Positions 9,084 through 52,619 of a stretch of 63,122 bases of DNA are shown here, piece after piece. The notes under the pieces are model-generated. The model had not been told where the DNA came from, ran no database searches, and worked only from the letters and a program-made list of their open reading frames with translations. The stretch is from a virus. Its lineage: Duplodnaviria; Caudoviricetes. The translations under genes and the position numbers were made by a program. The DNA lies in the IMG/VR virus record IMGVR_UViG_3300033067_000944, positions 1 to 63,122 of that record. The stretch is one strand, 5' to 3'. Position 1 is the stretch's first letter. The number at the start of each line of letters is the position of its first letter.

Positions 9084-9362
9084 CTAGTGTTCACTAGCGT
9101 TCCCGATCTTCTCCGGCGCCGGCGCTGCCTTGCTTCTCCGGCGCTTCGCCACTAACCGCAGGCCGAGGACGTTGGCCAGCTTTGCAGCATTGCGTAGCGT
9201 CATAGTGGTTCGCTCTCCGCTGATGAATTGGAATATGGCAATCGGCTGGTAGCCACTGGCGTTCGCTAGTCTCTGGACCTTGCCACCGTCCGCCAGATAG
9301 TCGGCAATCGCCTGCCGGATGATCGTTTCCCATTCGTCCGTTGTTCTGGCGCTATTCGGCAT
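9084..9362 (-). CDS. XRE/Cro-type HTH repressor
   Basis: VQRLANASGYQPIAIFQFISGER..MTLRNAAKLANVLGL; divergent from the early array. Confidence 0.75.
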   Translation of the reverse strand: MPNSARTTDEWETIIRQAIADYLADGGKVQRLANASGYQPIAIFQFISGERTTMTLRNAAKLANVLGLRLVAKRRRSKAAPAPEKIGNASEH

Positions 9363-9420
9363 CTATTCGTTCCTTATTTCTTTCTACTTTTTTTCGTGGC
9401 GCAAATCCTTGCCGCGTCTC

Positions 9421-9501
9421 AGTCTATCGTAGGTAATAGACTGCCGATGTCAAGATTCTCAGCAGAATTGTGTTGACGTCTAATATCGGGGCCGATATTC
9501 T
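9421..9501. promoter_or_regulatory. Divergent sigma-70 promoters with palindromic operators
   Basis: Plus strand TTGACG(9473)-17-TATTCT(9496) overlapped by AATATCGG-GG-CCGATATT; minus strand TTGACA-16-TACGAT overlapped by AGTCTAT-N8-ATAGACT. Confidence 0.75.
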
Positions 9502-9554
9502 TCCCTTAGTCAGTCGCTTGAGAACTGACAGGCACAAACGCGGAGAGTAAGACA

Positions 9555-9746
9555 ATGAACTACACCGTCGAACGAATGGACGTTACGCAAACCGCATACG
9601 GCACAGTTTCAAGCTGGTCTGTTGTCGCACAATACCAGCACCGCAGCGAGGCGCGCAAGTTTGCCGACAAGCTACGCGATACGCTTCCTGCCTCTTCACG
9701 GTGTGAGGTCTACGAGCGATCTGGTCGCATGGCTGTAAACGACTAA
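9555..9746 (+). CDS. Early array hypothetical protein
   Basis: First gene after the promoter and GCGGAG leader. Confidence 0.7.
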   Translation: MNYTVERMDVTQTAYGTVSSWSVVAQYQHRSEARKFADKLRDTLPASSRCEVYERSGRMAVND

Positions 9747-9834
9747 CGATTCGCCCCTGCCTGCCCTATCGACAGTAGGGCAGCATCGGGCGCACCGTTT
9801 GAGAGTGTGTAGGCTAAACGCGGAGAGTAGTAAG

Positions 9835-10218
9835 ATGAAAACTCGATATCAGTTTGAGGATCGTAAGACTGCCGAAGAAGCGTATCGCAAAGCAACCAAC
9901 GATACGCTACTGTCCAATATGGCAATCACTGATCTGCTATATGGTCACGTAGAGTGGTTCTCTGGTGGCGATTATCGCATTGGCGTCTGTCGTCCGACAT
10001 CGGCATCAGGCGGCAGTGTAATCGTGACATACTGCCCTGACGGCCAGAACCCATCGTCTAGCGTTCACTTCCTGGATGATTGGTGCGAATCAATTCGCCA
10101 GCAGCGCATCAGCGCATGCTTCGGCAACGATTCGGAGCTAGTTGGATTGTATGATCTGGCCGTCAAAGCAAAGGCCTATGCTCGCGCTTGTCAACAACGC
10201 GAATGGGTCGCAGCCTAA
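9835..10218 (+). CDS. Early array hypothetical protein
   Basis: ATG after GCGGAG at 9820. Confidence 0.7.
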   Translation: MKTRYQFEDRKTAEEAYRKATNDTLLSNMAITDLLYGHVEWFSGGDYRIGVCRPTSASGGSVIVTYCPDGQNPSSSVHFLDDWCESIRQQRISACFGNDSELVGLYDLAVKAKAYARACQQREWVAA

Positions 10219-10304
10219 CGGCTAGCCGTGAACCTGCCTTAGCAATAGGGCAGGCTACGGCTCGCCGTTTGAGAGCGAGTGGCATTAGCGCGGAGTAGAT
10301 TGAG

Positions 10305-10592
10305 ATGACAGCGAACGAACTATTAGCGATTGCACGCAAGGCGCGTCCGCATATCGAGTATGCGGTTCACAAGAATGGATCGGCGATTGCAGCCTACGAT
10401 CGGGAGCAAGGCCGATTCGTCGTGGTAGCGGCATTGTCGCTTTCCGGCCATTGGTACTCTAATCCAATGGAAGTTTTGGTTGATGGCGAGCGCTGGTATG
10501 CCGACAGTGATTTTGTCGCCGAATATGTCGAGCCAGTCCAGCCGATCCGCAACCCGTTTGAAGTGGTTGCAGTGATCGGGGGTGGCGCATGA
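10305..10592 (+). CDS. Early array hypothetical protein
   Basis: ATG after GCGGAG at 10290. Confidence 0.7.
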
Positions 10593-11230
10593 ACCTGTAC
10601 GAGCAATACCGCCCCCGATGCTGGTCCGATGTCGTTGGCCAAGATAAGGCAATCGCTAAGATCGATCAGCTACGCAAGCGCTGCCTCGCTGGCCGCGCCT
10701 ACTGGCTATCGGGGCAATCAGGGACAGGCAAGACTACGATCGCCAAACTGATCGCTGGCGAAGTCGCCGACGACTATGCAACCGAGGAACTAGACGCGGC
10801 CGTTGATTGCTCACCTGCGAAGCTGGCTGAATTAGAGCGCAAGCTGGCCAGTCGCCCGCTCTCCGGCGCCGGCTGGGCAGTCGTTATTAATGAAGCGCAC
10901 GGACTCAGCAAAGCGGCGATCCGACAATTACTGGTAATGCTCGAACGAATCCCGAACCACGTTGTTTGGGTATTCACAACGACCGTCGAGGGTGAAGAGA
11001 AGCTATTCGATGACTGCGATGATTCGCACCCTCTGTTGAGTCGTTGTTGCATCGTTAATCTGGCTCGCCGCGATCTGTCCAAGCCATTCGCCGAACTGGC
11101 GCTGTCAATTGCACGGGCCGAGGGCCTGGATGGAAAGCCAATCGACGCCTACGTGAAGCTAGCCCAGAAGCATCGCAACAATATGCGGGCGATGCTGCAA
11201 GATATTGAATCGGGCGGAATGCTGGATTAG
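10589..11230 (+). CDS. Clamp-loader-type AAA+ ATPase (DnaX/RarA N-terminal-like, truncated)
   Basis: [12 protein letters not shown], Walker [20 protein letters not shown]. Confidence 0.85.
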
Positions 11231-11264
11231 GTCACTAGGTCACAACTAACGAAGGGTAAATAGC

Positions 11265-11471
11265 ATGGCAACTACAACTAAGAAAATCTGTTCTGTCGGA
11301 TCGGGAGTCTACGCACTCAAACCGGCCGGCGCGAAGGTTCCTGACGGGTGCTATGAATATGAAGAGACAAGCGCCGGAATGGAGTTAAAGGACATCCGGT
11401 CAGACAAGCGTTTTACGCTTGCTAAGACACTGTTCTACTACTGTTTAACCGACTATCGGATCATACCCTAG
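11265..11471 (+). CDS. Early array hypothetical protein
   Basis: ORF between motif copies. Confidence 0.6.
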   Translation: MATTTKKICSVGSGVYALKPAGAKVPDGCYEYEETSAGMELKDIRSDKRFTLAKTLFYYCLTDYRIIP

Positions 11472-11559
11472 TCGATCCATCGCCAACCCCCTGCCTGGCA
11501 ATCAGGGGGCTGCGATGAACCGCCTGAGAGTTCATTAGGTCACTAGCGGAGTAGAAACA

Positions 11560-11988
11560 ATGGAAAGCAAGTTACATAAACTGTATCGCGCGGAGCGCAA
11601 GCTAGGATTCTCGGCTGCTGATGCTATGCGGAATGCTAAGATCCGCACCAACTGGAATGCCATTTGTCCCGAGTATGTTCAACTAGCAATAGTGCCGGAC
11701 TGCGACATCGACCTATCGTATCTAGATCAGGAAGATTGCTTTAGCACATCCGCGAAGCAAGAGACAATCGACCGATGCAATCGTGACGGCGCTTGGGGAA
11801 TCGTCGGCCAGTATCGCCTAACGGATGAATCGGAATGGATCACTGTTGATTCGTGCTGGGGATTCGTCGGCGACGATTGGGAGAATTCCGGGTATGACAT
11901 CGACATCATGCAAGCTACGCTTGACGCGCTGCGCGATGCTATCGCTTTCCGCGATCAGGCACAGTTAGCTCAATCGGTTATCGCCTGA
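11560..11988 (+). CDS. Early array hypothetical protein (DSCWGF motif)
   Basis: GCGGAG leader; VDSCWGFVG. Confidence 0.7.
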   Translation: MESKLHKLYRAERKLGFSAADAMRNAKIRTNWNAICPEYVQLAIVPDCDIDLSYLDQEDCFSTSAKQETIDRCNRDGAWGIVGQYRLTDESEWITVDSCWGFVGDDWENSGYDIDIMQATLDALRDAIAFRDQAQLAQSVIA

Positions 11989-12021
11989 ACAATACTAGGC
12001 CACTATCGCGGAGTTTAAGCC

Positions 12022-12381
12022 ATGAGATGCACGGTAGAAATTCGAGATCGTAAGGTTTACGCCGTTCATTCCTACGTTGAATTGAACGAACCAATCCGGC
12101 GCAAGATGTTTTTCCGCCTCGGGATTTGCGCCAGCGAACTAGACGCGCAAGCATTGGTGGAATTACCCGGCAAGGAAGTTTATTGCGATACGCAATACGC
12201 AACGGCGTCGGTGTACCTCGGGCCGTGGCGGGATTGGAAGTGTCAAGGTCCGGCAGGCAGCACCCCATGCGATTTTATTGAGACTGAGATAGTACCGGCC
12301 CCGAAGTGTAAGGTAGAAACGCGGTGGCGCAATGGTCGCTGGGATAAGTATCTGAAAAGCAAGGGCTGGGTTATCGCCTAG
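12022..12381 (+). CDS. Early array hypothetical protein
   Basis: GCGGAG leader. Confidence 0.65.
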   Translation: MRCTVEIRDRKVYAVHSYVELNEPIRRKMFFRLGICASELDAQALVELPGKEVYCDTQYATASVYLGPWRDWKCQGPAGSTPCDFIETEIVPAPKCKVETRWRNGRWDKYLKSKGWVIA

Positions 12382-12479
12382 TTCGCCCCATCTTCACCCC
12401 CTGTTAGGTCACTAATCCGGCCTTGACAGGGGAGACAGATGCGACGATTGGGATCGTATCAAGGTATTAACGCGGAGTT

Positions 12480-13130
12480 ATGACAATGAACGCTACAAGC
12501 AAGAAATGGTCAATCAATGACATCAAATCGGCCATGCGGGTAAAGGGGTCGCATTGGTTTGATGCCAGCGCACTGCGGTTCTTTAGGTCACGAATCGGCA
12601 ACGATGTATTTCAGGGGTCGGGCGGAGTCTACTTTGTGTCATCGGAACAATTCGGCGACGGCTCGCCTAGGCTGTATACCGTTCGCCAGTTCGATCCCGA
12701 TGCGATTGCGATCCGCGACGGTTCAAGCTTCCAAGAGTTCGCCACACTGCGAGCCGCCAAAGCGGCTGCTAGGTCACTGGCTGGCCCTGATGCTAGTTCG
12801 GTCGCGGAGTCTTTCATCGCGCCAACGGAGTTCGATGACTTCGTTCTCGTTGTGCAGGCGGAGTATCCCGACGTTAGCGCCGGCGTGCTGCGATTGCTTT
12901 GCCTATACGCAAAGCGACATCATGCAGCCTGCGAACGCGAATGTAACGAAGGCGGCGAACATGCCGAGGGAATGGAGCGGGTAATCAATGAATTGCTCGC
13001 AAAGCAAGGGCAAGGCCTTGTGGCGATCTTCCAGGGCGATCCGCGTGGCGTGACCGTCAAGGTTAAGCTGCCCAGCGGCGCTACCAATGACTTCGGCAAA
13101 GAAGGCATTTGTGTTCCGACCGACATCTAG
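12480..13130 (+). CDS. Early array two-domain hypothetical protein
   Basis: GSHWFDASALRFFRSRI...YFVSSEQ...RLYTVR; C-terminal FQGDPRG. Confidence 0.7.
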   Translation: MTMNATSKKWSINDIKSAMRVKGSHWFDASALRFFRSRIGNDVFQGSGGVYFVSSEQFGDGSPRLYTVRQFDPDAIAIRDGSSFQEFATLRAAKAAARSLAGPDASSVAESFIAPTEFDDFVLVVQAEYPDVSAGVLRLLCLYAKRHHAACERECNEGGEHAEGMERVINELLAKQGQGLVAIFQGDPRGVTVKVKLPSGATNDFGKEGICVPTDI

Positions 13131-13218
13131 TCGATGCACCTTGAACCCGCCTTAGGTCACTAGGGCGGGCTAAGGTTCACCGTTTGAGAGTGGACAGGTT
13201 TAGCGCGGAGAAATAGAA

Positions 13219-13443
13219 ATGACTGCAATCGTAATCCTTGCTCGTGACGTAACCGAAGAATTAGCGCCGGTAAGCGGCGCACGATGCAGGTACTGCGGCA
13301 AGCGCCCGTGGCGCGATCCCGAAGCGCTTTGGACAATCGACTGCTCGACGGCATTCTGTGATGTCTGTTGGGATGACCTGCAACAGGAATTGGCAGCCAG
13401 CTTGACGAAAGACCGAGCCGCGATCCTGCCCGATTCCATCTAG
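13219..13443 (+). CDS. Early array Zn-finger protein
   Basis: CRYC...CDVC; GCGGAG leader. Confidence 0.65.
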   Translation: MTAIVILARDVTEELAPVSGARCRYCGKRPWRDPEALWTIDCSTAFCDVCWDDLQQELAASLTKDRAAILPDSI

Positions 13444-13531
13444 CCGCCACGCCCGCACCCCCCGTGCTGCCAGCCGGGGGCGACGGGTTTGACGACGGAG
13501 TTCAAACTAGGTCACTAGCGGAGTTAGAAAT

Positions 13532-13840
13532 ATGGAAACAAAACACACACCGGGGCCGTGGACCAGTAATGCGTTCGCAAGAGAACCAGACTGCGAGTAT
13601 TTCGTTGCCGGACCCGAAGGCCAATGGCTGGCAGACGTAGGGGGTGGCGAGGACTACGTTGACCACAGCAGCATGGATACGCAACGCGCCAACGCCCGCC
13701 TGATCGCAGCCGCGCCTGATTTGCTGGCCGCGTGCGAAGCAGTGTTAGACATGGTCGAAAGCGAAGGTCGAGACACTGGCAGGGGTGGCGCATTTTCTGA
13801 TATGCGAGACGCCATTGCGAAAGCGACTGGTGCCGCATGA
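13532..13840 (+). CDS. Conserved phage hypothetical protein
   Basis: HTPGPW...ANARLIAAAPDLLAAC. Confidence 0.8.
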   Translation: METKHTPGPWTSNAFAREPDCEYFVAGPEGQWLADVGGGEDYVDHSSMDTQRANARLIAAAPDLLAACEAVLDMVESEGRDTGRGGAFSDMRDAIAKATGAA

Positions 13841-14145
13841 AGATAGCAGAACTAAAACGCACCCTTACACCCGGCACGAAATTGCGATGCGTTCACAATG
13901 CTCGTGGTCCCGTGCCTCCTGGCGAGCAGCACCGCGAAGTAGTTAGTGTCAGTAGCGCAAATATCGTAATGCGAGGAATGCTGAATGATCGACCGACAGC
14001 GCTGTCATACCTGCCGATGCCAAAGGCTAGCGAGCTATCATCTACTCGCAGTGGCTTTCGGATCGAAATAGCGGAAAAACCGCACTCTGTAGCGGTGGCC
14101 ATTGAGTATGAATGGGTACACGACACGGAAGGCGGTGCAGTATGA
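13837..14145 (+). CDS. Hypothetical protein
   Basis: ATGA coupling. Confidence 0.6.
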   Translation: MKIAELKRTLTPGTKLRCVHNARGPVPPGEQHREVVSVSSANIVMRGMLNDRPTALSYLPMPKASELSSTRSGFRIEIAEKPHSVAVAIEYEWVHDTEGGAV

Positions 14146-14414
14146 CCTTCACGCACACCACAATCCGCACCGCAGCCTACGACCGAGGCGATGCGGATCA
14201 ATGGGAGTCGGACGACGGGCGATATCGGATCGTCGCCGTCTACCGTGCCTGGGGAGTCTGTATGCCCACCCACGTTCACGCGATCTTTAGGACGGCAGAC
14301 GGTGAACGCCACCTGTGTCCCGAGCGTACTATCCGTAGTCGCCGCGTGGCCGAGCGGATTTGCAAACGTCACGCGCGGGAGAATAAGATTGTCGGGCAAA
14401 TGAGCATGTTTTAG
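14142..14414 (+). CDS. Hypothetical protein
   Basis: ATGA coupling (MTFTH...). Confidence 0.55.
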   Translation: MTFTHTTIRTAAYDRGDADQWESDDGRYRIVAVYRAWGVCMPTHVHAIFRTADGERHLCPERTIRSRRVAERICKRHARENKIVGQMSMF

Positions 14415-14446
14415 GGCACTAACGCCAGCACAAAAGGATACGAACA

Positions 14447-14830
14447 ATGAATACGACAGACACCAAAACCGATCCGGTTCTCGAACTGTGCAGCAACACG
14501 GAATGGATGCGCGAATACTCTGGTCTAAACCTGGATGCCATCGACTACGCATTTGCAGACGAGGCGGCGGTACACTTGCGCGAACAGATTTGGGACCGGC
14601 TTGATGGGAACGGTTTTCGAGTGGAACCGTCAAGAGGTCAGCGGTCTTTATGCCACGGATGGAATGGTGCGAACACGTTCACGCACAAGCTCGGACCAAT
14701 CGGAACCTTCGACGACCTGACAGCAGACCAGGAAGCGGCAATCTATTCCGCTATCGAGGACGCGATCAAGGCGACTGAAACCGCCTACGCGCCCACGGCA
14801 GGCAGTGTGATTGCCGACGACGAAGAATAG
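14447..14830 (+). CDS. Acidic hypothetical protein
   Basis: AAGGA RBS; D/E-rich. Confidence 0.65.
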   Translation: MNTTDTKTDPVLELCSNTEWMREYSGLNLDAIDYAFADEAAVHLREQIWDRLDGNGFRVEPSRGQRSLCHGWNGANTFTHKLGPIGTFDDLTADQEAAIYSAIEDAIKATETAYAPTAGSVIADDEE

Positions 14831-14905
14831 CAATACTCCGCGTGGCCGGGGTGCTCTGCGGCTCGTTGTCGCACCACCCTGGCCGTGCCTGGATTTAGGC
14901 CACTA

Positions 14906-15649
14906 ATGCCTCCAACCTGCTACGGCTATACCATCGATGATCCTGCCCCGCTGCTGGCGTACCATGCTGAGCATCTAGCGGTTGCTATGCCGATGGGTGG
15001 TATCTTTCGGGATGAGTATTTCTATCAGCCGCTCCGCGACCGTGAGCAATTCCACGGCTTGCAGATGACGCTGCAACGGGGCGACGTGCTGCTACTGTCC
15101 TCGATGCGAGCGCTGCACAAGAAGGCGAACGCCATCGACACCGTGAACAAGTGGCTGCGTCTCGGCATCCGGCTGGTAATCGTCGATCACAACGCCAGCT
15201 TGAATGATCTTACTCCCGAGGGTCGCAACGGAGTCAACGTCATTAGGGCACTAAACGCGGTCGCCAATCATCGGCAGCATAGCGTCTGCGAACGAAACAT
15301 TACCGACGAGCGATTCTACCGGTTCAAGGGCTGGGGCGTCATGCGGATGCGCAAGCACAAGAAATGGCTATGGGTCCACGACAAGCGTACCCGCGAAGCG
15401 ATGCGGCTGATCGTCGCCATGCGGGCGCGTGGTAGTCGCTGGATTGATATCCTGCGATGGCTGGTATCCCACCAGATATATCGCAACGGTAAGCGCTGGA
15501 AGTCGTCATCGACCATAGCCCTGGCCTACAAATACGAGATGGAATTTAGGGCATTAGAAGCAACGATCAAACAGGAGCAACAACAATGCGCGCCATCGGC
15601 TACGTCCGAGTCAGCACCGACGAACAAGCTCGCGACGGAGTTAGCTTAG
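14906..15649 (+). CDS. Degenerate serine-recombinase-like protein lacking the catalytic Ser
   Basis: CYGYTID where YxRxS is expected; REQF..L...LQRGDVLL; DLTPEGR; basic C-terminus. Confidence 0.6.
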   Translation: MPPTCYGYTIDDPAPLLAYHAEHLAVAMPMGGIFRDEYFYQPLRDREQFHGLQMTLQRGDVLLLSSMRALHKKANAIDTVNKWLRLGIRLVIVDHNASLNDLTPEGRNGVNVIRALNAVANHRQHSVCERNITDERFYRFKGWGVMRMRKHKKWLWVHDKRTREAMRLIVAMRARGSRWIDILRWLVSHQIYRNGKRWKSSSTIALAYKYEMEFRALEATIKQEQQQCAPSATSESAPTNKLATELA

Positions 15650-16266
15650 AGGTTCAACAGGCCAAGATTAAAGGCTACTGTGACCTGTATGGCCTGAACC
15701 TAACCGATACCATCACTGATGCCGGCGAATCATCCAAGACACTGAATCGCCCCGGCATAAAATACGTGTTGGAACATCTCGACGTTCAGGCAGCCGAGTG
15801 CGTTGTGATTGCCAAACTGGATCGTCTCACGAGGTCAGTATCCGACTGGCAATACCTGATCGACCGCTACTTCTGCGAGAAGGCCGGCAAGCGATTGTGC
15901 TCAGTGAACGACAGCATCGACACGCACAGCGCATCGGGCCGGCTTGTGCTGAATATCCTCATGTCGGTTGCTCAATGGGAGCGGGAAGCGATCAGCGAGC
16001 GCACGAGGGAAGCACTAGGTCACAAGATCAAGAACGGCGAGCGGTGCGGGCGCGTGCGGTATGGGTATACGCTGGCTGCGGATGAGAAAACTCTGGTGGA
16101 GGACAGGGAGGAATTCCTAATCTTGGTTGAGATGCGGATTCTCCGTGGCAATGGCTGGAACTACCGAGAGATAGCCAATCACTTAAACCGAAACTGCAAG
16201 CCATGCCGAACTGGAAAGCTGTGGTCGCACTCGACCGTGCGTTGCATCTTGAATCGCAGCGCATGA
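15586..16266 (+). CDS. Serine recombinase (resolvase family with a short recombinase domain)
   Basis: GYVRVSTDEQ, NRPG, AKLDRLTRS, DTHSASGRL, AQWERE, YGY...IANHLN...WSHSTV. Confidence 0.92.
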   Translation: MRAIGYVRVSTDEQARDGVSLEVQQAKIKGYCDLYGLNLTDTITDAGESSKTLNRPGIKYVLEHLDVQAAECVVIAKLDRLTRSVSDWQYLIDRYFCEKAGKRLCSVNDSIDTHSASGRLVLNILMSVAQWEREAISERTREALGHKIKNGERCGRVRYGYTLAADEKTLVEDREEFLILVEMRILRGNGWNYREIANHLNRNCKPCRTGKLWSHSTVRCILNRSA

Positions 16267-16301
16267 AAAAAACCGGCACCCGCGATAGGATCGGATGCCG
16301 G
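16266..16301 (-). terminator. Rho-independent terminator of the virion operon
   Basis: On minus, CCGGCATCCG/CGGGTGCCGG stem then T7, at a convergent junction. Confidence 0.75.
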
Positions 16302-16331
16302 GCCACGAAAGGATTCTCTCTCGCTGGTATT

Positions 16332-17549
16332 TTACCAGCCGTAGGAACCGGGGGCAACGGATCGGCCAGCAAGCGAGCTTGCGATTCCACCAATGCCCGA
16401 TGGCGGCGTGCCGACGTTGTGTGGATTGCCGGGGCCGTAATACTTGTATCCCGATGAAGCCACTTGGTTCTGTGTCGGCGTGGCCGTCTGATTTACAGGC
16501 TGGGCAACCGGCGCCATCGCGTTTTGAAGTTGCTGATACTGCGGTTGGTACTGGGCTAGTTCCGCATTCTGCCTAGCGCGTGCAGCAGCTTCGCTATCCG
16601 CTGCCGCTTTCTGATTGGCTGCGATGCCAGCCGAGTAGGCGTTGCTATCGAACTGCGGTCGGGGTGCAGGTGGTGGCGTATAGGCCGGCATCCCGGTCGG
16701 ATTGCCGAAAGCGTAGTACGCATTCTGATCGCTGTAGGGATTGTACTTTTCAAACTGGTTGGTCATTTCCTGCCCTGCATGACCATACCCAGTTCCGTAA
16801 AGTTTGGAGTTGTAGTCAGACCACTCTGAACTATGGTCCTTATTGTCCCACGTTGGTTCCGGCTTGGACGGATCGTAGCCCATGCCGGACCCGAGGAATT
16901 TCGTACCAAATACCCAATCGTTTGGATTCGACTGGCCGATCATTTCATTGAGGCCAGAACTAATCGCACCTGGGATGTCTGCTGGCCTGGGATTGTCCGG
17001 CGCACCGTAGGGACCGGCCACACTACCAGCCGCCATGCCATTGCCTTGAGCGCTGAGCGGCGCTGGCGTTGGTGGAGTCCACGGCTGCGGAGTCGGGAAT
17101 CCACTGGTCTGCGGCTGTTGATACGCCGGTCCGTTCATACCGTTGCCGGTTGCCGGCGCTGGTCCTGAGTTGCCACCACCAAAGAACACTGGTTGCGTCG
17201 GATGCGGCTGCGGCGTGCTGGTCGGATAGTTGTGCGCGGCAGGTAGTGGCGAAGGCGTGGCTGCTCCCGAGGCGTTCGGCGCAAATCCACCCGAGCCAAT
17301 ACTGCCTGTCGATCCTGAACTGCCGCCAGCAGTAGTGGTGGTCGGCTGGGCATCAGCAAACCAATTACTGAACAAGCCTGGACGCGGAGCGGGAGTCGTT
17401 GTCGTTGTCGGCGAAGTGCCGGCATTGTTGAACGATGCTCCGAATCCGCCACGCGGCGCCGCCATCTTCCCGAACCGATTGTTCAGACTACTGGCGATGC
17501 CATTGATTCCACCAAAACCACCACCACTCGATGCGCCAAACATACTCAT
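16332..17549 (-). CDS. Low-complexity G/P/Q/T-rich virion or ejection protein
   Basis: Last gene of the structural operon; start at MSMFG inferred. Confidence 0.6.
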   Translation of the reverse strand: MSMFGASSGGGFGGINGIASSLNNRFGKMAAPRGGFGASFNNAGTSPTTTTTPAPRPGLFSNWFADAQPTTTTAGGSSGSTGSIGSGGFAPNASGAATPSPLPAAHNYPTSTPQPHPTQPVFFGGGNSGPAPATGNGMNGPAYQQPQTSGFPTPQPWTPPTPAPLSAQGNGMAAGSVAGPYGAPDNPRPADIPGAISSGLNEMIGQSNPNDWVFGTKFLGSGMGYDPSKPEPTWDNKDHSSEWSDYNSKLYGTGYGHAGQEMTNQFEKYNPYSDQNAYYAFGNPTGMPAYTPPPAPRPQFDSNAYSAGIAANQKAAADSEAAARARQNAELAQYQPQYQQLQNAMAPVAQPVNQTATPTQNQVASSGYKYYGPGNPHNVGTPPSGIGGIASSLAGRSVAPGSYGW

Positions 17550-39183: not shown

Positions 39184-39460
39184 CAGCGAGTTCCCGTTCC
39201 AAATCCTCTTCGCTCATGCTCGTTACATCGTCGTCGTCACCCTTGGCGCGAATGGACATTTGCACCAGCTTGACAACCAGGTCCATCACCTTGGCCTTCG
39301 TGGCCGAATTGCCTTCTTCGTAAGTCGCATCGAGTTTCTGCGCGATTCCATTCGCGCCACCAAATTGCTCCAAGCAAGCGTCTGTCAATTCGACAATCCG
39401 CTTGATATCGGTTTTCGCCTTACTGGCTTCACGAACCAGCGTGTTGAGTGATACGTCCAT
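39176..39460 (-). CDS. Probable terminase small subunit
   Basis: Helical ORF directly upstream of terL; ends MSEEDLERE. Confidence 0.5.
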   Translation of the reverse strand: MDVSLNTLVREASKAKTDIKRIVELTDACLEQFGGANGIAQKLDATYEEGNSATKAKVMDLVVKLVQMSIRAKGDDDDVTSMSEEDLERELAGG

Positions 39461-40922
39461 TAGTTGCTGACACTTCCGCAGGAATGGTTTTGTACCACAT
39501 TGAATTCTGTGTTCCGTCGATCCCGCATTCGTTCGCGGCACGAATGACGCCTGGAAACTGCGGCAGGTAATCGTGTCCGCAGACAACACCACCCGGACGC
39601 ACAAACGGCGACCATGCCGCGATATCGGCTTTCACGTCCTCGTATTCGTGGCTGGCGTCGATGAATACCATGTCGATTGCCGAGCACCAGTTGGCGGCCA
39701 CATCGAGCGATGCGCCACGATGCACGAAGATTGTCTTATTGAGACGGTCGCCGATGTTCGACAAGAAGGTTTCGTAGGCGTTTTTGGGAGCCTTACCCAG
39801 TTGATCGTTTGGGTTCCCTTTCCAATGATCGACGCAATGCACAATTGCGCCGGCATCGGCCATTTCGATTGCAGTCAGGCCAGCGTAGGTTCCAACCTCG
39901 ACGACGATAGGCTTGCGCCCTAGTTGTTCCCTCAAGTCGTGAATAGTTTCCACGAGCGCATCGCGGTCGCAAAACGGAACTTCGTGCCCCATCCAGTCCC
40001 CGGATGAGGACTTGGGAATGTCGTTGCGATGCGTGTCACCGACGAGAACTAGCCGGTCGTCCGCGTGCCGGCCTTCTAGTACGGATCGCTTGAGCGTGTC
40101 CGTCACAAAGTCGGTCGTGATGATGTAGGGCTTGCCTACGCATTTTGGTTTCCAGTGTCCGGCCCAGGCGTCCCAGTTGCAGAACACCGGGTTGTAGCCA
40201 AGCTCTAACTGTCCTCCGAGAGAAATGTTTCGCGTGTTGTACACGTCCTCGGTGGAACACTTCTTCATGCGCGGCCCAGGCTTCGGCTGATTGCAGACTT
40301 GGCAGCGCCCGCCGTCACCTTCCCATTCGTAATCGAAGTAGGGTCGGTCGATCAGGTCGAAGCACCGCATGTCATACATAATCACGCCGGTCGGCAGAGC
40401 AGCGCACGGCTGAATACCACTCATGGCGGCGGCTTCTTCGCGGCTGTAGGCAACGATGGATACGAACGGATTCGGCGTGCCCGTTTCTCGATGCGCCCAG
40501 CGAAATACGTAGACGTTCTCGATGCCGCCTTTGGTGGCGTGCGGAGGCGGTCCGCAATAAGGAGTTCCGACGACGTGTGGTCCGCGATCCCAGTTTTCAT
40601 AGAGAAAGTCGAAGCTCGATTCAAAGAACGGCTTCGCTAGCGGATCGTTGCCGACGTAAATGTCGGGGGCATTGTCGCTATCCAGCATGACAATGATGTC
40701 GATGCCGGCTTGCTGGGCGTGATGAATCGCTTGATTGCGGGTCATCGTGATCGGCGTATCGCTGATGCGAATCGAACTGATATCGCTGATGCGCGGGTCT
40801 TTTTTCGCCTTGCAGACGACGCCCGTTACCCAGTCGCAGATTTCTGGAATCTCTGCGGACGTAGCTCCATTACCGCCGTAGGGGAACCTCGCGATTAAGA
40901 CAGATAATTGTCTCGGCTTCAT
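39429..40922 (-). CDS. Glycosyltransferase (GT-A-like) fused to a class I SAM methyltransferase
   Basis: RNQAI...MLDSD...TGVIMY...RPYF...TEDVY; VEVGTYAG, FIDASHEYE, GHDY. Confidence 0.8.
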   Translation of the reverse strand: MKPRQLSVLIARFPYGGNGATSAEIPEICDWVTGVVCKAKKDPRISDISSIRISDTPITMTRNQAIHHAQQAGIDIIVMLDSDNAPDIYVGNDPLAKPFFESSFDFLYENWDRGPHVVGTPYCGPPPHATKGGIENVYVFRWAHRETGTPNPFVSIVAYSREEAAAMSGIQPCAALPTGVIMYDMRCFDLIDRPYFDYEWEGDGGRCQVCNQPKPGPRMKKCSTEDVYNTRNISLGGQLELGYNPVFCNWDAWAGHWKPKCVGKPYIITTDFVTDTLKRSVLEGRHADDRLVLVGDTHRNDIPKSSSGDWMGHEVPFCDRDALVETIHDLREQLGRKPIVVEVGTYAGLTAIEMADAGAIVHCVDHWKGNPNDQLGKAPKNAYETFLSNIGDRLNKTIFVHRGASLDVAANWCSAIDMVFIDASHEYEDVKADIAAWSPFVRPGGVVCGHDYLPQFPGVIRAANECGIDGTQNSMWYKTIPAEVSATNGRITQHAGS

Positions 40923-44422: not shown

Positions 44423-45280
44423 CTAGCCCAACGCAGGCGGCATGGTCGTCTGCTGGCCGCAGATGCGCGAATCCTTGTAGTGTCTCTCGAATAGTTGCGG
44501 AGAACGATGCCCGAGGTGTGCCGATCCGCACCCCGGCTGCGACCGTTCAACCGCACTGGCCGACAGGATGCGGATTCCCTTGGTCGCTTTCTTCGTCTCG
44601 ACACCAGCAGCAATCCGTATCGCGTGAAATAGCGGATACCAGCGATTCCGGTTGCACCAGAGCGGCCAGATTAGCCGCCTGTCTGGTTGTGACGCCATGC
44701 AGGCGTCGATTGCTTCTAGCGTTGACGGTCGCAACTGTACGCGGTGTGTATGTCCCGTCTTGCCCTGGGCAATCGAGAGATAACCGCCCGGCCAAATCCA
44801 AGAGCGTTCGAGCGACAGAACATCACTCAGCCGCAACGCGGTATCGTAGCTCGCCATCAGGAACGACGGCCACCAGAGTCGGCGGGGAATCTTCACCTTC
44901 CGACCGACGTTTCCAGTGAGCGATTCGGCAACGCGGATCATCGCGGATAGCTCACCGGGAAGGAAGCCGACCGGGATCAACTCGGGGCACTTGATGCGGC
45001 GAATCCTGCCGACTGGCGGGGCGAGTCCGGCATCGTGGGCGGCGGTCCAGAGTGTGACAATGCAGCGGCGTTTGCCGTGGATTGTTGGTGCGGCTAGACC
45101 GGACTGCTGCTGGCTAACAAGCCAAGCGTTGACCTGATCGGATGACAATTCAGCTAGCGATATCGGATGGCCGACGAACCGCTCTAGGCCGCGTGCGGCA
45201 ATTTCCAACTGCACCACATAGCCAGCACTGACGCCTCGGTGCATCGCGTAAGTCGCCGCATACCCCAATAGAGTTTCCAT
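44423..45280 (-). CDS. int: Tyrosine integrase
   Basis: DTALRLSD, KT, KGIR, HLGH, RHY; adjacent to a tRNA fragment. Confidence 0.85.
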   Translation of the reverse strand: METLLGYAATYAMHRGVSAGYVVQLEIAARGLERFVGHPISLAELSSDQVNAWLVSQQQSGLAAPTIHGKRRCIVTLWTAAHDAGLAPPVGRIRRIKCPELIPVGFLPGELSAMIRVAESLTGNVGRKVKIPRRLWWPSFLMASYDTALRLSDVLSLERSWIWPGGYLSIAQGKTGHTHRVQLRPSTLEAIDACMASQPDRRLIWPLWCNRNRWYPLFHAIRIAAGVETKKATKGIRILSASAVERSQPGCGSAHLGHRSPQLFERHYKDSRICGQQTTMPPALG

Positions 45281-46218: not shown

Positions 46219-47286
46219 ATGTCTACGGCAGCCATCATCCCGATTCGTGAGACGAAGCCTCTGCTTATGCTCGCCGAGGTTCGGGACGCATTGGCGGAAG
46301 TCGTGAGCATCGGTGACGCACTGCCTCTCATTAGCAAGGCGGAAGCGTTGCGGGTGTGCTGCCGCAAGGCTGGACTGTCGGTCGAGATTCAGAATCAAGC
46401 AACTGAGGTCAAGTTGCGGTGCGAGCGTGAAGCCGGACGGTTAATTCGTCTCGGTCAAGAGTGCGGTGAAATCTCTACAAGAGGTGGCGACAGAGCAAAC
46501 TTCCACGATGGAAGTTTGAAACTAGACGACATTGGAATTACGCACAAGCAGTCCCATCGATGGCAACGCCTCAACGCAATCGACGCCGAACAATTCGAGG
46601 AAGAATTGGAATTATTCCACGAGTCCGACCGCGAGATTACCACAGCCCACTTCCTGAAACTTGCAGCACGCCAAAGTGCCAACGAAGAAGAGTCGGAAGA
46701 GTCGTCTGCGATTGGCGGCGATGTTGTAGCGAACCTGCAAGAGCTAATAGACGCAGGAAGGAAGTTTCGCACCGTCTACGCCGACCCTCCGTGGCGGTAT
46801 GGCAATCAGGCTACCCGTGCGTCAACGGATAACCACTATCAGACCATGACGGTGGACGAGATTTGCGCTGAGCCAGTATCGCAACTGCTTGAGGACAATG
46901 CGCACCTTCACTTGTGGACAACCAACGCGTTCCTGTTCGAGTCCAAGCGAGTACTAGAGGCGTGGGGGTTCGAGTACAAGTCGTGTTTCATCTGGTGCAA
47001 AAAGCAGATGGGAATTGGCAACTACTGGCGGCTGAGTCACGAGTTCCTAATTCTTGGCGTGCGTGGCAGCCAGCGATTCCGCGACAAATCCCTGATGAGT
47101 TGGCTCGAAACGGAAAGCAGCGTTGCAATCACTGACCGAACCAAGCACAGCCAGAAGCCGCGTGCGGTTCGCCTCATGGTCGAGAAGGCAAGCAGGGGAC
47201 CATACCTAGAAATGTACGGACGCGAAGCGATGCCCGACTCGCCGTGGACTGTGTACGGAAACCAAGTTGGCAAACGGATGTTCTAG
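46219..47286 (+). CDS. MT-A70 family adenine methyltransferase
   Basis: ADPPW, HLWTT, WGFEYKS, HSQKP, LEMYGR. Confidence 0.9.
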   Translation: MSTAAIIPIRETKPLLMLAEVRDALAEVVSIGDALPLISKAEALRVCCRKAGLSVEIQNQATEVKLRCEREAGRLIRLGQECGEISTRGGDRANFHDGSLKLDDIGITHKQSHRWQRLNAIDAEQFEEELELFHESDREITTAHFLKLAARQSANEEESEESSAIGGDVVANLQELIDAGRKFRTVYADPPWRYGNQATRASTDNHYQTMTVDEICAEPVSQLLEDNAHLHLWTTNAFLFESKRVLEAWGFEYKSCFIWCKKQMGIGNYWRLSHEFLILGVRGSQRFRDKSLMSWLETESSVAITDRTKHSQKPRAVRLMVEKASRGPYLEMYGREAMPDSPWTVYGNQVGKRMF

Positions 47287-47921: not shown

Positions 47922-48116
47922 ATGTTTGAAATCATCCTATTTCTCTCGGCCCTGTTGAACCTGACCTTAATCGCCATGCTGCTAACCGACCGACCAGCAT
48001 CGCCGCTAACCGGCATCGCCTGGCACGAGACGACGAGGCGAACGGTAATCAACGCACAGTTTCGCAGGCTACCGGAATGCGGCGTCGGCTACCTGATCGA
48101 GAACGAAAGGAACTAA
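47922..48116 (+). CDS. Small membrane protein
   Basis: N-terminal hydrophobic helix. Confidence 0.5.
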   Translation: MFEIILFLSALLNLTLIAMLLTDRPASPLTGIAWHETTRRTVINAQFRRLPECGVGYLIENERN

Positions 48117-48118
48117 GC

Positions 48119-48376
48119 GTGACGGATCACGAGATTGCACGGTTTATAAAGAAGCGGAGAACAGTCAGGGAATTGGTGGCGGTTAAGGCTTTGCCAATGA
48201 CACAGCGGGAAGTTGGCTTGCATCTTGGCATCAGCTACCAGCGTGTTCAGCAGATCGAACGCAAAGCACTGCGAAAGCTGATGAAAAGCATAAGCATGGC
48301 GAACATCAATCGTCGGCACTGGGAAACCATCGCCGACGCGGAGGATGAACATCACCGAAGGAATCGTGTGATGTAG
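48119..48376 (+). CDS. Stand-alone sigma-70 region 4 HTH protein
   Basis: MTQREVGLHLGISYQRVQQIERKALRKL. Confidence 0.8.
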   Translation: MTDHEIARFIKKRRTVRELVAVKALPMTQREVGLHLGISYQRVQQIERKALRKLMKSISMANINRRHWETIADAEDEHHRRNRVM

Positions 48377-52011: not shown

Positions 52012-52057
52012 CAAGCAGCCCACCCAGACAGTTGCGTGTCTGTGAGGGAATGATTGG

Positions 52058-52104
52058 CCGCCTAGTGCCCGACAGCTTGTGGCCTAGGGCTAGGCGGTTT
52101 TTTT
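52058..52104 (+). terminator. Rho-independent terminator
   Basis: CCGCCTAG/CTAGGCGG then T7. Confidence 0.75.
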
Positions 52105-52119
52105 GACAAGGAAGTTGAC

Positions 52120-52317
52120 ATGTCAAACGCTTTCGACGAACGCCGCTTACTCGACCCAAGCGGATTGATAGATGACCTGGTGCAACAGACATCGGCCCAG
52201 GCGAAGCGAATCCATGACATGCGAGGCGATATGGAATGCTCGCTAGAGGCGGTCGAACTGTCAATCGTGGAACTAACAAAAGCCAAGGAAGCTTTAACTA
52301 ACGCTCTGGCTATTTAA
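52120..52317 (+). CDS. Hypothetical protein
   Basis: AAGGAA RBS. Confidence 0.55.
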   Translation: MSNAFDERRLLDPSGLIDDLVQQTSAQAKRIHDMRGDMECSLEAVELSIVELTKAKEALTNALAI

Positions 52318-52349
52318 CCAGACACAACCATCAAGAATGGAGTCTTGAA

Positions 52350-52619
52350 ATGCTCGTGTTATCGAGAGCCAAAGGCGAAGGAATCCTAGTCGGCGAGACG
52401 GTTCTGATCGTCGTCACCGCGATCCACGCTCACGACGTGCGTATAGGAATCCAGGCACCGCATGACGTGCCGATTCACCGCTCAGAAGTCGTTGAACGCA
52501 TCATTGCCAACGGTGGCAGGCTCAACGAGCAGGGCGAGTTAATCGAGCGTTCGCGGCAGGATTTGATGGCGGAGATTCAATCGCTCAAGGGGCAGTTGGC
52601 TTTGGCTACGAAGCGATAG
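52350..52619 (+). CDS. csrA: Carbon storage regulator CsrA homolog
   Basis: MLVLSR..GE.I.VG...VRIGIQAP.DV.IHRSEV. Confidence 0.92.
   Translation: MLVLSRAKGEGILVGETVLIVVTAIHAHDVRIGIQAPHDVPIHRSEVVERIIANGGRLNEQGELIERSRQDLMAEIQSLKGQLALATKR

Follow-up and report, generated by a model that had tools for sequence, protein, structure and literature searches.

What is the function of a small RNA-like hairpin that recurs seven times, each time just ahead of a start codon, in the early operon of a temperate-looking phage whose genome is a closed circle of 63,122 bp (the window, that is, the whole stretch of DNA that we analysed)? The seven hairpins, which we call H2, are probably a shared control site for the synthesis of early proteins. 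Tentatively, we favor the explanation that H2 is a protein-bound translational operator common to seven early cistrons, with processing at an upstream hairpin, H1, as a possible added step. The operon is preceded by a rightward promoter-like site that lies inside a 190-nt divergent region and is opposed by a leftward TTGACA-16-TACGAT site, and its hairpins are arranged as follows:

9473..9501, plus strand: promoter-like site of the rightward early operon, TTGACG-17-TATTCT (9/12 matches)
9509..9529, plus strand: H2 copy 1, GTCAGT / loop CGCTTGAGA / ACTGAC, without an upstream H1 (model R1, 56.7 bits)
9790..9810, plus strand: H2 copy 2, GCGCAC / CGTTTGAGA / GTGTGT, with two G-U pairs (model R1, 57.0 bits)
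10260..10280, plus strand: H2 copy 3, GCTCGC / CGTTTGAGA / GCGAGT (model R1, 53.8 bits)
11514..11536, plus strand: H2 copy 4, (G)ATGAAC / CGCCTGAGA / GTTCAT(T), followed by TAGGTCACTA and GCGGAG (model R1, 50.9 bits)
12438..12460, plus strand: H2 copy 5, GATGCGA / CGATTGGGA / TCGTATC, with GGA in the loop (model R1, 56.6 bits)
13175..13195, plus strand: H2 copy 6, GTTCAC / CGTTTGAGA / GTGGAC (model R1, 60.3 bits)
13486..13508, plus strand: H2 copy 7, (G)GTTTGA / CGACGGAGT / TCAAAC(T), with ACGGA in the loop, followed by TAGGTCACTA and GCGGAG (model R1, 49.5 bits)

All seven hairpins of the original prediction were recovered, by reading and by a mechanical search, with the coordinates, stems, and loops that it had given. 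Each consists of a plus-strand stem of 6-7 bp, which begins with a paired G in every copy, and a 9-nt loop, CGNNNGRGW, which reads CGYYTGAGA in five of the seven and in which positions 1, 2, 6, and 8 (C1, G2, G6, and G8) are invariant. Across the window, this loop on a stem of at least five pairs occurs seven times on the plus strand and not once on the minus strand. When stems of at least six pairs are required, 200 dinucleotide-preserving shuffles yield a mean of 0.495 and a maximum of 3 for the loose loop pattern, as against the seven real copies, and a mean of 0.010 and a maximum of 1 for the strict loop CGYYTGAGA, as against five observed. The loop word CGNNTGAGA by itself is not enriched (13 matches vs 10.9 expected), so the signal resides in the combination of loop, stem, and position. 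An unbiased scan for hairpin families (stems of at least 6 pairs, loops of 7-11 nt at most one mismatch apart, and at least four different stems) returned H2 as the only family whose loop has at least 8 nt.

The claim that every stem differs and nevertheless pairs was borne out: in an alignment of the seven copies, which are paralogues from one genome with pairing among their selection criteria, all 42 stem cells are paired, changes on both sides are found at 6/6 pairs, none of 500 shuffles reached the observed pairing or covariation score, and slid alignment registers give 14-45% pairing. G-U pairs make up five of the 42 and would be A-C if read on the opposite strand, and these, along with the lack of minus-strand copies and the fixed distance to the ribosome-binding site (RBS), agree with the earlier proposal of a plus-strand RNA.

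The relation of H2 to the gene starts is equally regular, and here too the expected order of hairpin, GCGGAG, and start codon was found at each copy. The GCGGAG block lies 9-12 nt beyond the end of H2 and the ATG a further 8-9 nt on, such that 23-26 nt separate H2 from the start codon even though all stem positions have changed:

9540..13523, plus strand: span of the invariant GCGGAG blocks, starting at 9540, 9820, 10290, 11546, 12008, 12472, 13205, and 13518, with ATG 8-9 nt on
11996..12024, plus strand: eighth start block, without hairpin, TAGGCCACTA-TC-GCGGAG-8 nt-ATG (model R1, 19.9 bits)

H2 is restricted to gene starts in this one operon; in the genome outside it, gene starts carry other RBS types and no H2-like hairpins. 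The first copy, said to lack the long stem and to sit at the start of the transcript, does so: its first paired base, 9509, is 7 nt past the -10 box, the transcript start itself being predicted from the promoter-like site. These two facts, the constant Shine-Dalgarno/ATG distance and the placement of copy 1, weigh against hairpins formed in single-stranded plus-strand DNA for a recombinase or nicking enzyme (integron attC-like, or with an HUH-type nonanucleotide loop), a reading that we consider most unlikely. It could draw on the G-T pairs, which DNA hairpins tolerate, on the two recombinase genes of the phage, and on a resemblance to rolling-circle origins, where a conserved 9-nt loop is carried on variable stems; a Pfam scan of roughly 70 ORFs, with some 27 rough ORFs outside it, however, detected neither an HUH nor an integron-integrase domain.

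The fixed spacing would also suit a protein-free translational insulator or enhancer, in which a locally folding H2 keeps the RBS from being paired with the GC-rich H1 or with coding RNA further upstream, so that unrelated inserted genes are translated alike, and in which the loop is kept for a stable fold, such as a hexaloop closed by C1-G8 or a T-loop-like turn. RNAfold does close the H2 loop with a C1-G8 pair in 7/7 copies, and the genes downstream of the copies are unrelated ORFans. The formation of H2, however, brings no consistent rise in the computed accessibility of GGAG, and four invariant loop bases exceed what a stable fold usually needs; we judge this explanation improbable.

Most copies are accompanied by a second structure. 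As had been claimed, six of the seven copies follow a long stem, which we find to be a two-part, GC-rich hairpin (H1) that begins 8-10 nt past the upstream stop codon:

9752..9792, plus strand: H1 of unit 2, 5-bp outer helix and GC-rich inner helix, 16 bp in total, no U tract
10217..10269, plus strand: H1 of unit 3, three-part 22-bp stem (minimum-energy fold), 3' strand overlapping H2
11478..11517, plus strand: H1 of unit 4, 6-bp outer and 7-bp inner helix
12389..12441, plus strand: H1 of unit 5, 13-bp inner helix whose loop holds TAGGTCACTA, outer helix CATCT/AGATG possible
13138..13176, plus strand: H1 of unit 6, 5-6-bp outer and 10-bp inner helix, loop holding TAGGTCACTA
13451..13488, plus strand: H1 of unit 7, 5-bp outer and 9-bp inner helix

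U tracts are absent from H1, and none of the six was called terminator-like; we read H1 as a divider between adjacent cistrons and not as a terminator. The original prediction gave an antitermination RNA (boxB- or put-like) as an alternative. For such an RNA, of the nut/boxB or put type and allowing RNA polymerase to pass the H1 hairpins, one may cite a conserved-loop hairpin just 3' of the early promoter that is repeated after terminator-shaped stems. A U tract is present in a terminator elsewhere in the genome (52057-52108), unlike in H1, and H2 lies downstream of H1 and so could not prevent it from folding. A boxB-type loop, moreover, is a GNRA-like pentaloop, whereas that of H2 has 9 nt; the plus strand of 9500-13600 contains no boxA-like word; and a processive mechanism requires one site per operon rather than seven. 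We therefore hold antitermination to be very improbable.

H1 and H2 appear to be rivals for the same bases. Alignment columns 62-63 are common to the H1 outer helix and to H2 and covary with both partners in 6/6 units; the outer helix would compete for the first two bases of H2, and H2 would consequently be favored after a cut or unwinding at H1. In RNA that begins at the stop codon, the predicted occupancy of H2 is at most 0.21 in five of the six internal units, and in RNA that begins 3 nt before H2, it is at least 0.72 in six of all seven; these folding predictions are compatible with processing at H1. They also lend weight to the main rival of the translational operator, a possible though rather doubtful processing and stability module (the main idea of the original prediction), in which RNase III or another endonuclease cuts H1, what is left of H1 stays on the upstream mRNA as a 3' protective hairpin, H2 shields the 5' terminus of each downstream mRNA against 5'-end-dependent decay, and the conserved loop serves folding or nuclease recognition instead of a regulator. 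Such a module would account for an intercistronic two-part stem with an internal loop and no U tract, for an H2 fold favored only once the upstream RNA is gone, for the paired G that starts every H2, and for the distance of copy 1 from the -10 box, which would make it 5'-terminal on the primary transcript. A plain 5' cap hairpin, however, could do without conservation of its 9-nt loop and without constant spacing from the Shine-Dalgarno block.

The closest known counterparts of H1 are the RNase III signals of the T7 early region, which are likewise irregular stems with internal loops between the cistrons of one early transcript. Those sites are not known to be followed by a distinct hairpin whose loop is conserved. 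In the portion of the literature cited here, the ideal E. coli RNase III substrate has 22 bp, single-strand cuts at internal loops yield 3' stabilizing hairpins, and cleavage at T7-type signals would leave such a hairpin on the upstream RNA (PMC3867540); only one of the six H1 stems attains 22 bp, the other five having 13-16 bp and falling short of that ideal. The self-cleavage that had been entertained for the long stem is not supported, no Rfam ribozyme having been matched.

The wider setting of the operon invites yet another explanation, in which the units are boundaries of mobile regulatory cassettes, homology patches or recombinase sites that shuffle ORFans, and any RNA role is secondary. 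Among 113 fetched loci, 13 of the 16 early-region proteins have no relative; ten ORFs separate the clamp-loader gene from the recombinase gene in this phage, whereas of 12 relatives listed, at least 8 have the recombinase gene within ~110 nt after the clamp-loader gene; and the units have a mosaic make-up, the 5' half of unit 6 grouping with unit 5 and its 3' half with units 2 and 3, and a stretch of 31 nt being 84% identical between units 4 and 7. The model for such cassettes would be the PeSLs of T4-type phages, described in the sections cited as promoter plus stem-loop units that are mosaic, run from stop to start between genes, contain a Shine-Dalgarno sequence and a GC-rich stem-loop with G-T pairs, and concentrate before ORFans in the hyperplastic early region (PMC2839356). 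According to the same sections, the defining features of PeSLs are that every unit has a strong sigma-70 promoter and that the stem-loops terminate (PMC2839356), and PeSLs are not known to include another, conserved-loop hairpin, whereas here none of the six internal units (2-7) has a sigma-70-like promoter and H1 has no U tract. Recombination, moreover, requires sequence identity, but the H2 stems have diverged at every position and remain paired, which points to selection on structure; the cassette explanation is in our estimation unlikely.

The supposition that the element belongs to no described RNA family is upheld insofar as Rfam gave no match at gathering score in the whole window and, in the H2 region, only four chance-level matches (E 2-9.2). 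In some 1.5 Mb of phage DNA, either related or selected by pattern, the model found no further copy. The original interpretation as a whole is partly supported. The element, found in one genome only, joins the known start-associated regulatory elements of phages, of which the SAS/ESAS of Cluster K mycobacteriophages are, in the part of the report cited, asymmetric conserved blocks that include the RBS and stand in a single orientation before some non-structural genes; about half have an inverted repeat just 5', and a translational role is suspected (PMC3203893). The sequences are unrelated to H2, and ESAS conserve 17-bp arms around a variable spacer (PMC3203893), whereas H2 keeps its loop constant between arms that vary with compensation, a pattern that points to RNA structure.

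How seven such sites would act together is suggested by better-known operators. The T4 gene 43, Mu com-mom, and MS2 coat operators are single-hairpin translational operators, and like H2, they place a sequence-specific loop hairpin next to the RBS; unlike H2, each occurs once per genome. The T4 RegA/RegB shut-off puts many early mRNAs under one phage protein, as would be the case here, but its sites are not hairpins; in the text cited, RegB acts on early genes at their GGAG Shine-Dalgarno sequences (PMC3014915). With T4 RegA and gp43, Mu Com, and CsrA as models for joint control of targets through binding sites, we propose that the H2 copies are cis-acting elements of the plus-strand early mRNA, that each would offer a sequence-specific binding site, the conserved 9-nt loop on a stem of any sequence, held at a set distance 5' of the Shine-Dalgarno block, and that one trans-acting RNA-binding protein could through them jointly control the translation and mRNA stability of the seven cistrons; both the binding and the direction of regulation are what we infer. 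Against this proposal, the predicted accessibility of the Shine-Dalgarno block shows no consistent shift with versus without upstream RNA. If H1 is processed, each cistron would begin like the primary transcript, at H2 as in copy 1.

Pfam revealed no RegA, RegB, or Com homologue among the scanned ORFs, and the most concrete candidate for the trans-acting partner, whose identity we infer, is a CsrA homologue of the phage itself; the presence of its gene is what gives the proposed protein-binding role of H2 a definite candidate:

52350..52619, plus strand: gene for a CsrA-family RNA-binding protein, 89 aa (Pfam PF02599), candidate trans-acting partner

The Pfam match has an E value of 6e-19 and 68.2 bits (cut-off 27), and residues 1-54 align without gaps to solved CsrA/RsmE chains (E ~4e-10), with R44 kept. 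As stated in the portion of PMC7652899 cited, one CsrA dimer bridges a hairpin-loop site and a Shine-Dalgarno site 10-63 nt apart, with an optimum of ~18 nt. From the end of the H2 loop to the GGA of the Shine-Dalgarno block there are 17-20 nt, a spacing that by analogy fits two-site binding, and a CsrA dimer could thus span the loop and this GGA. CsrA/RsmA leaders of the glgC and hag type resemble the present ones in having an upstream hairpin and a GGA-bearing Shine-Dalgarno sequence, in this intersite distance, which falls within the range and close to the optimum, and in the GGA of loops 5 and 7; a CsrA-family gene is also present in the same genome. GGA is found in all seven Shine-Dalgarno blocks but in just those two loops, UGAGA taking its place in the other five, and the invariant loop bases differ from the CsrA core; further differences are that seven leaders stand within one phage operon and that a 9-nt loop on 6-7 bp contrasts with the hexaloops on stems of at most 4 bp that predominate among SELEX sites in the cited part of PMC7652899. 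Some CsrA homologues keep repressing after a hairpin GGA to GAA change, according to the excerpt cited (PMC13443453). The portion of a survey cited reports no phage-encoded CsrA target (PMC7366521). Neither CsrA nor H2 is present in two complete relatives, but the distance of both (43% and 56% protein identity) makes this weak evidence. Canonical CAAGGA-type hairpins occur near the phage csrA gene and also ahead of a leftward gene, which suggests that the phage CsrA keeps the ordinary GGA specificity.

Phage early regions carry many small genes of unknown function, and their joint switching is understood in few model phages only. The genome described here brings together seven early genes, an invariant ribosome-binding block and a CsrA-type RNA-binding protein, and its seven natural variants of one RNA hairpin, with compensatory stem changes built in, form a compact and testable system. 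All seven hairpins (H2, a 6-7 bp stem closed by a 9-nt loop) were located where the original prediction had placed them. The loop pattern CGNNNGRGW in a stem of at least 5 pairs occurs 7 times on the plus strand of the window and 0 times on the minus strand; with a stem of at least 6 pairs and a loose loop, the mean count in 200 dinucleotide shuffles is 0.495, and the strict loop CGYYTGAGA is observed 5 times against a mean of 0.010 in 200 such shuffles. Taken by itself, the loop word shows no enrichment (13 observed versus 10.9 expected), and an unbiased scan returned the H2 family as the sole hairpin family with a loop of at least 8 nt.

When the seven copies are aligned, which are paralogues of one genome (n=7) for which pairing was among the selection criteria, 42 of 42 stem cells are paired and both-side changes occur at all six pairs; these values are reached by none of 500 shuffles, and slid registers pair only 14-45%. 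Because the stem sequence is wholly turned over, plain shared ancestry is ruled out as the cause of pairing. Four loop positions (1, 2, 6 and 8; C, G, G and G) are invariant. Five stem pairs are G-U, and therefore only the plus strand fits, which bears out the earlier claim that the stems differ in sequence yet pair as plus-strand RNA; single-stranded DNA sites, a reading that would have the hairpins act as DNA, are less likely. That H2 is a plus-strand RNA hairpin family, selected for its pairing, its loop sequence and its distance to the ribosome-binding site, is near certain.

The hairpins sit in a fixed intercistronic unit, in which the stop codon is followed by 8-10 nt, an outer helix of ~5 bp, a GC-rich inner hairpin, the 3' strand of the outer helix (helix and inner hairpin together being termed H1) and H2, and then by 9-12 nt, GCGGAG, 8-9 nt and ATG. 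The distance from stop codon to H2 is 41-44 nt in five of six units and 57 nt in unit 5, and that from the end of H2 to ATG is 23-26 nt. As predicted, GCGGAG and then ATG follow H2 in all seven units. An eighth gene start, at 12022, has the GCGGAG block without the hairpin, and gene starts outside the operon have other ribosome-binding sites and no such units. Counted over the full 63,122 bases, GCGGAG has 46 plus-strand and 6 minus-strand occurrences, being present also where genes run on the minus strand, and several other hexamers likewise have a strong strand skew (CCGAGC, for example, 42 versus 4). The first copy does lack the long stem, as had been noticed, and its first paired G (9509) falls 7 nt past the -10 box of a promoter-like site, TTGACG-17-TATTCT, which faces a leftward promoter-like site across a 190-nt divergent region. 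At 9420-9443 a perfect 8-base inverted repeat (CAGTCTAT-8 nt-ATAGACTG), which looks like an operator, extends over the -10 box of that leftward site.

Between 8000 and 17000, plus-strand promoter-like sites were found only at 9473-9501 and 15736-15763, with none in the six internal units. An intrinsic terminator is a GC-rich hairpin with a U tract; no H1 stem is of that kind (0 of 6), whereas the U-tract terminator at 52057-52108 shows that the genome does use this signal. Since no promoter-like site lies on the plus strand between 9501 and 15736 and no H1 is terminator-like, the operon from 9555 to 16266 is most simply a single transcript that carries the units internally. The same observations bear on recombination sites resembling the PeSLs of T4-type phages. 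The genomic setting is similar, but a PeSL cassette has a sigma-70-like early promoter in each unit, where the six internal units have none, and this reading is less likely. The stem-loop of a PeSL is a terminator or attenuator that flanks ORFans in a hyperplastic region; the units here have the stem-loop and the ORFan context, and a U tract occurs in none of the six H1 stems. Antitermination, put forward originally as a boxB- or put-like alternative, is also less likely. The lambda nut site has a boxB hairpin with a 5-nt GNRA-like loop and boxA upstream; the H2 loop, by contrast, has 9 nt in 7 of 7 copies, and no boxA-like word with at most one mismatch occurs on the plus strand of 9500-13600.

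H1 is itself supported by covariation, with 93% of the cells of the outer helix paired and double changes in four of its five pairs (RNAalifold and pair counts). Alignment columns 62 and 63 are used by both helices, the outer one and H2, and in 6 of 6 units they covary with either partner; two base pairs would therefore be contested between the helices or let one slide along the other. In predicted folding, H2 has a probability of at most 0.21 in five of the six internal units for an RNA that begins at the upstream stop codon, and of at least 0.72 in six of seven units for one that begins 3 nt before H2 (unit 4, 0.12). In the operator reading given below, H1 would be an intercistronic insulator whose removal favours H2; an insulator working free of protein is less likely. 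No consistent change was computed for the accessibility of GGAG. The idea that the 5' half of H2 masks the Shine-Dalgarno sequence was dropped for want of a consistent trend, and short 3-bp stems around GCGGAG were discounted as register-dependent.

The main rival to a protein-bound operator is RNase III-type processing that leaves H2 as a 5' protective hairpin, a reading that can coexist with the operator and that we regard as rather unlikely. A T7-type RNase III signal is an irregular helix of ~22 bp (two helical turns) with an internal loop. Five of the six H1 stems have an internal loop, and the helix totals of all six (minimum-energy or centroid) are 16, 22, 13, 13, 16 and 14 bp, so that 22 bp is reached by one of the six. 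If the hairpins were processing or 5'-protection signals instead, they would amount to a natural set of modular intercistronic insulators. Self-cleavage of the long stem, also proposed, finds no Rfam ribozyme match. Several further candidates were set aside: a loop-to-spacer pseudoknot, a k-turn and a hammerhead core, as well as sigma-54 or sigma-70 sites in the conserved blocks, have unfitting bases or spacings when judged by eye against their consensus sequences, and the loop word TTGAGA as a -35 box has no -10 box at 16-18 nt. A T-loop is a turn of five bases, the first and fifth of which form a reverse-Hoogsteen pair; UGAGA or UGGGA, found in six of seven loops, is T-loop-compatible by sequence, and GGAGU in copy 7 is not.

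The claim that H2 is not a described RNA family held, with 0 matches at gathering score to Rfam 15 in the whole window; in 9300-13800 the same collection, self-cleaving ribozymes and known phage cis-elements included, gave 4 matches with E values of 2-9.2, far under gathering. For the covariance-model search then proposed, R1, a model of H2 plus the start block, was built and recovered all seven copies at 49.5-60.3 bits (the hairpin-less eighth block scoring 19.9 bits), and it gave no credible match in the fetched phage and metagenome loci. Protein-guided fetches yielded 1 + 1 + 3 IMG/VR loci, 80 metagenome loci and 5 genome loci, the best identity among the fetched relatives being 66% for the clamp-loader and 43% for the terminase. 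In 88 loci around clamp-loader-like or terminase homologues (651,797 bases) nothing scored over 13.4 bits, two further fetched loci (L002 and L003) gave nothing, and in three whole genome records (G002, G003 and G004) there was no match or a score of 10.3 bits. From IMG/VR, exact patterns retrieved 19, 4 and 61 loci in three scans (84 in all), in which the R1 maxima were 16.2 and 23.3 bits, none of them credible; two of the loci, L004 and L160, were judged to be chance, with no stem present. Chance also accounts for the best matches in an 8.4-Mb genome (G001; 21.5 and 16.3 bits), where the matched strand is antisense to a pair of paralogous signal-peptide coding regions. A rough look at the intergenic regions of three relatives' loci (L030, L110 and L111) revealed single hairpins past stop codons and no second hairpin family. 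So far, then, H2 is private to this genome, the public collections having been scanned by exact pattern or protein only.

The window has genes for a large terminase and for the tail, and many of its ORFs belong to no known family; blastn of 9400-16400 found no DNA-level relative among 50,697 phage records. A public contig of 63,151 bases contains the entire window circularly permuted, its own ends overlapping by 29 bases, and the genome is therefore a closed circle of 63,122 bp; the IMG/VR label of the record (linear, with a completeness estimate of 58%) is contradicted by this circular contig. In four runs of contigs, which contain the circular assembly and, from a related strain, short fragments, no variation was seen inside any hairpin. 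In all four runs a 50-base stretch at 13685-13740, within the gene at 13532-13840 (PHROG 1273), was matched at 80-90% identity in very many unrelated contigs; it is a segment of a phage gene that is shared widely. As the circle is closed, every phage-encoded factor should be in view. The Pfam scan covered ~70 of 97 rough ORFs, leaving out ~27 that are mostly structural. Among its matches, a 99-aa protein at 48077-48376 (plus strand) has a sigma-70 region 4 domain (E 5e-8) and is a possible phage transcription factor, and five ORFs (737-1273, 1270-2034, 39429-40922, 46219-47286 and 169-438) have nucleotide- or DNA-modifying matches, including a dATP/dGTP diphosphohydrolase N-terminal domain, the three DNA methyltransferase families N6_N4_Mtase, Methyltransf_24 and MT-A70, and a staphylococcal-nuclease-like ORF, which hint that the phage may modify DNA or tamper with the nucleotide pool.

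The best explanation, which we hold tentatively and at somewhat below an even chance, is that H2 is a protein-bound translational operator common to seven early cistrons. Among the remaining ORFs, Pfam identified an 89-aa protein of the CsrA family (gene 52350-52619; PF02599, 68.2 bits against a cut-off of 27), and this phage CsrA is the leading, though doubtful, candidate partner of H2. Its residues 1-54 align without gaps to solved CsrA and RsmE chains and it keeps R44, a residue whose mutation, according to passages on CsrA-RNA recognition, disables an RNA-binding surface (PMC7652899). The same passages describe binding of GGA in hairpin loops, bridging by one CsrA dimer of two sites 10-63 nt apart with an optimum of ~18 nt, and, for glgC, two sites formed by a hairpin loop and the Shine-Dalgarno region (PMC7652899). 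Here the distance from the end of the loop to the GGA of the invariant GCGGAG is 17-20 nt, which agrees with the two-site spacing of CsrA leaders. The GC ahead of GGAG is not accounted for by known pairing with 16S rRNA. A GGA in the upstream hairpin loop, the other mark of CsrA leaders, is found in two of the seven copies (5 and 7), the other five having UGAGA, although some CsrA homologues tolerate a GGA-to-GAA change in the upstream hairpin, as reported in part of one account (PMC13443453). Also against the link, the invariant loop bases differ from the CsrA core, and the H2 stem is longer and its loop larger than in SELEX sites. Moreover, hairpins of the CAAGGA type (12 sites against 5.5 expected) are found around csrA and ahead of the leftward gene 9084-9362. 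Two hairpins have the classical form of a CsrA site, in which a stem of 5 bp carries a loop reading CAAGGAU or CAAGGAA:

9395-9411, minus strand: CsrA-type hairpin within the leader of gene 9084-9362, which is leftward and repressor-like
52284-52300, plus strand: CsrA-type hairpin 50 nt before the csrA start

These hairpins suggest that the phage CsrA keeps ordinary specificity, which counts against the link to H2; the one at 52284-52300 falls inside a possible 65-aa ORF (52121-52318). GGA-loop hairpins in general, with 544 on the plus strand, were uninformative.

A more elaborate form of the operator reading, which we consider unlikely, would have the phage CsrA turned into a RegA-like master switch of its own early genes, acting through seven two-site operators formed only after the RNA is cut. 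Each operator would comprise a non-GGA loop (CGYYUGAGA) and the GGA of GCGGAG, bridged by a CsrA dimer, and the 2-base overlap with the upstream hairpin would let it form only once the polycistronic RNA is cut. Were the hairpins CsrA sites, this would explain why phages carry csrA, and the recognition code known for the family would become wider; the master switch would further provide the first target set of a phage-encoded CsrA and a loop specificity new to the family. Both csrA and H2 are absent from two complete, distant relatives, searching IMG/VR with the phage CsrA protein turned up no relative, and tblastn of the protein against 178 loci (flanks of ~10 kb) gave no match. No hairpin family of this kind is present in Dartukuta, a Bacillus phage that bears csrA. 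Matches to csrA occur in 45 of 50,697 phage records; a 2020 survey counted the gene in 30 of 2,517 phage genomes (~1%), and its passages on phage csrA call for loss-of-function experiments and describe no target (PMC7366521).

In its presumed working mode the element is nearest to CsrA-type or phage translational operators, with the defining GGA in only 2 of 7 H2 loops. Its layout resembles the SAS/ESAS of Cluster K, for which parts of the description give a conserved 13-bp start-associated word, conserved 17-bp inverted-repeat arms and a variable spacer (PMC3203893); here the pattern is reversed, the arms varying and the spacer being conserved, and the likeness is best taken as analogy only. 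As one defining feature failed for each system compared, the element is filed outside every named family, among the start-associated regulatory elements of phages, of which it would be a new variant.

Relatives in the fetched loci were found for three of 16 early-region proteins, namely a clamp-loader-like ATPase, a DUF7447 protein and a 226-aa serine recombinase; Protein Atlas returned a zinc-finger-like fold and unnamed phage clusters only for two early proteins. Of the 12 relatives listed, at least 8 have the recombinase gene within ~110 nt after the ATPase gene, whereas in the window ten ORFs and four units separate the two. With these intervening ORFs and the mosaic units, the early region behaves like the hyperplastic ORFan regions of T4-type phages. 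The short recombinase (15586-16266, plus strand; Resolvase, E 1e-33) ends the early operon, and a second recombinase gene, at 44423-45280 (minus strand), has a weak tyrosine-integrase match under the cut-off (E 1.5e-4).

The motif TAGGTCACTA has 14 matches with at most one mismatch at 11228-16025 (plus 3536), all on the plus strand, against 1.3 expected, and was not found repeated in any other locus examined. Its sites include the H1 loops of units 5 and 6, the H2-to-GCGGAG stretch of units 4 and 7, two stop codons (11228 and 14412), a position directly upstream of a possible ATG at 14906, and the interior of three genes; by lying between genes and in one orientation it recalls the stoperator sites of mycobacteriophage L5. 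A relative's locus (L031, 2955-8557) contains ~20 repeated hairpins whose loop is TTCGTTCGT and which are spaced by multiples of ~71 nt; they look like a CRISPR-like array and lie within a few kb of the gene for the clamp-loader-like protein, and a similar repeat with 72-nt spacing is present in another locus (L034, 1841-2273).
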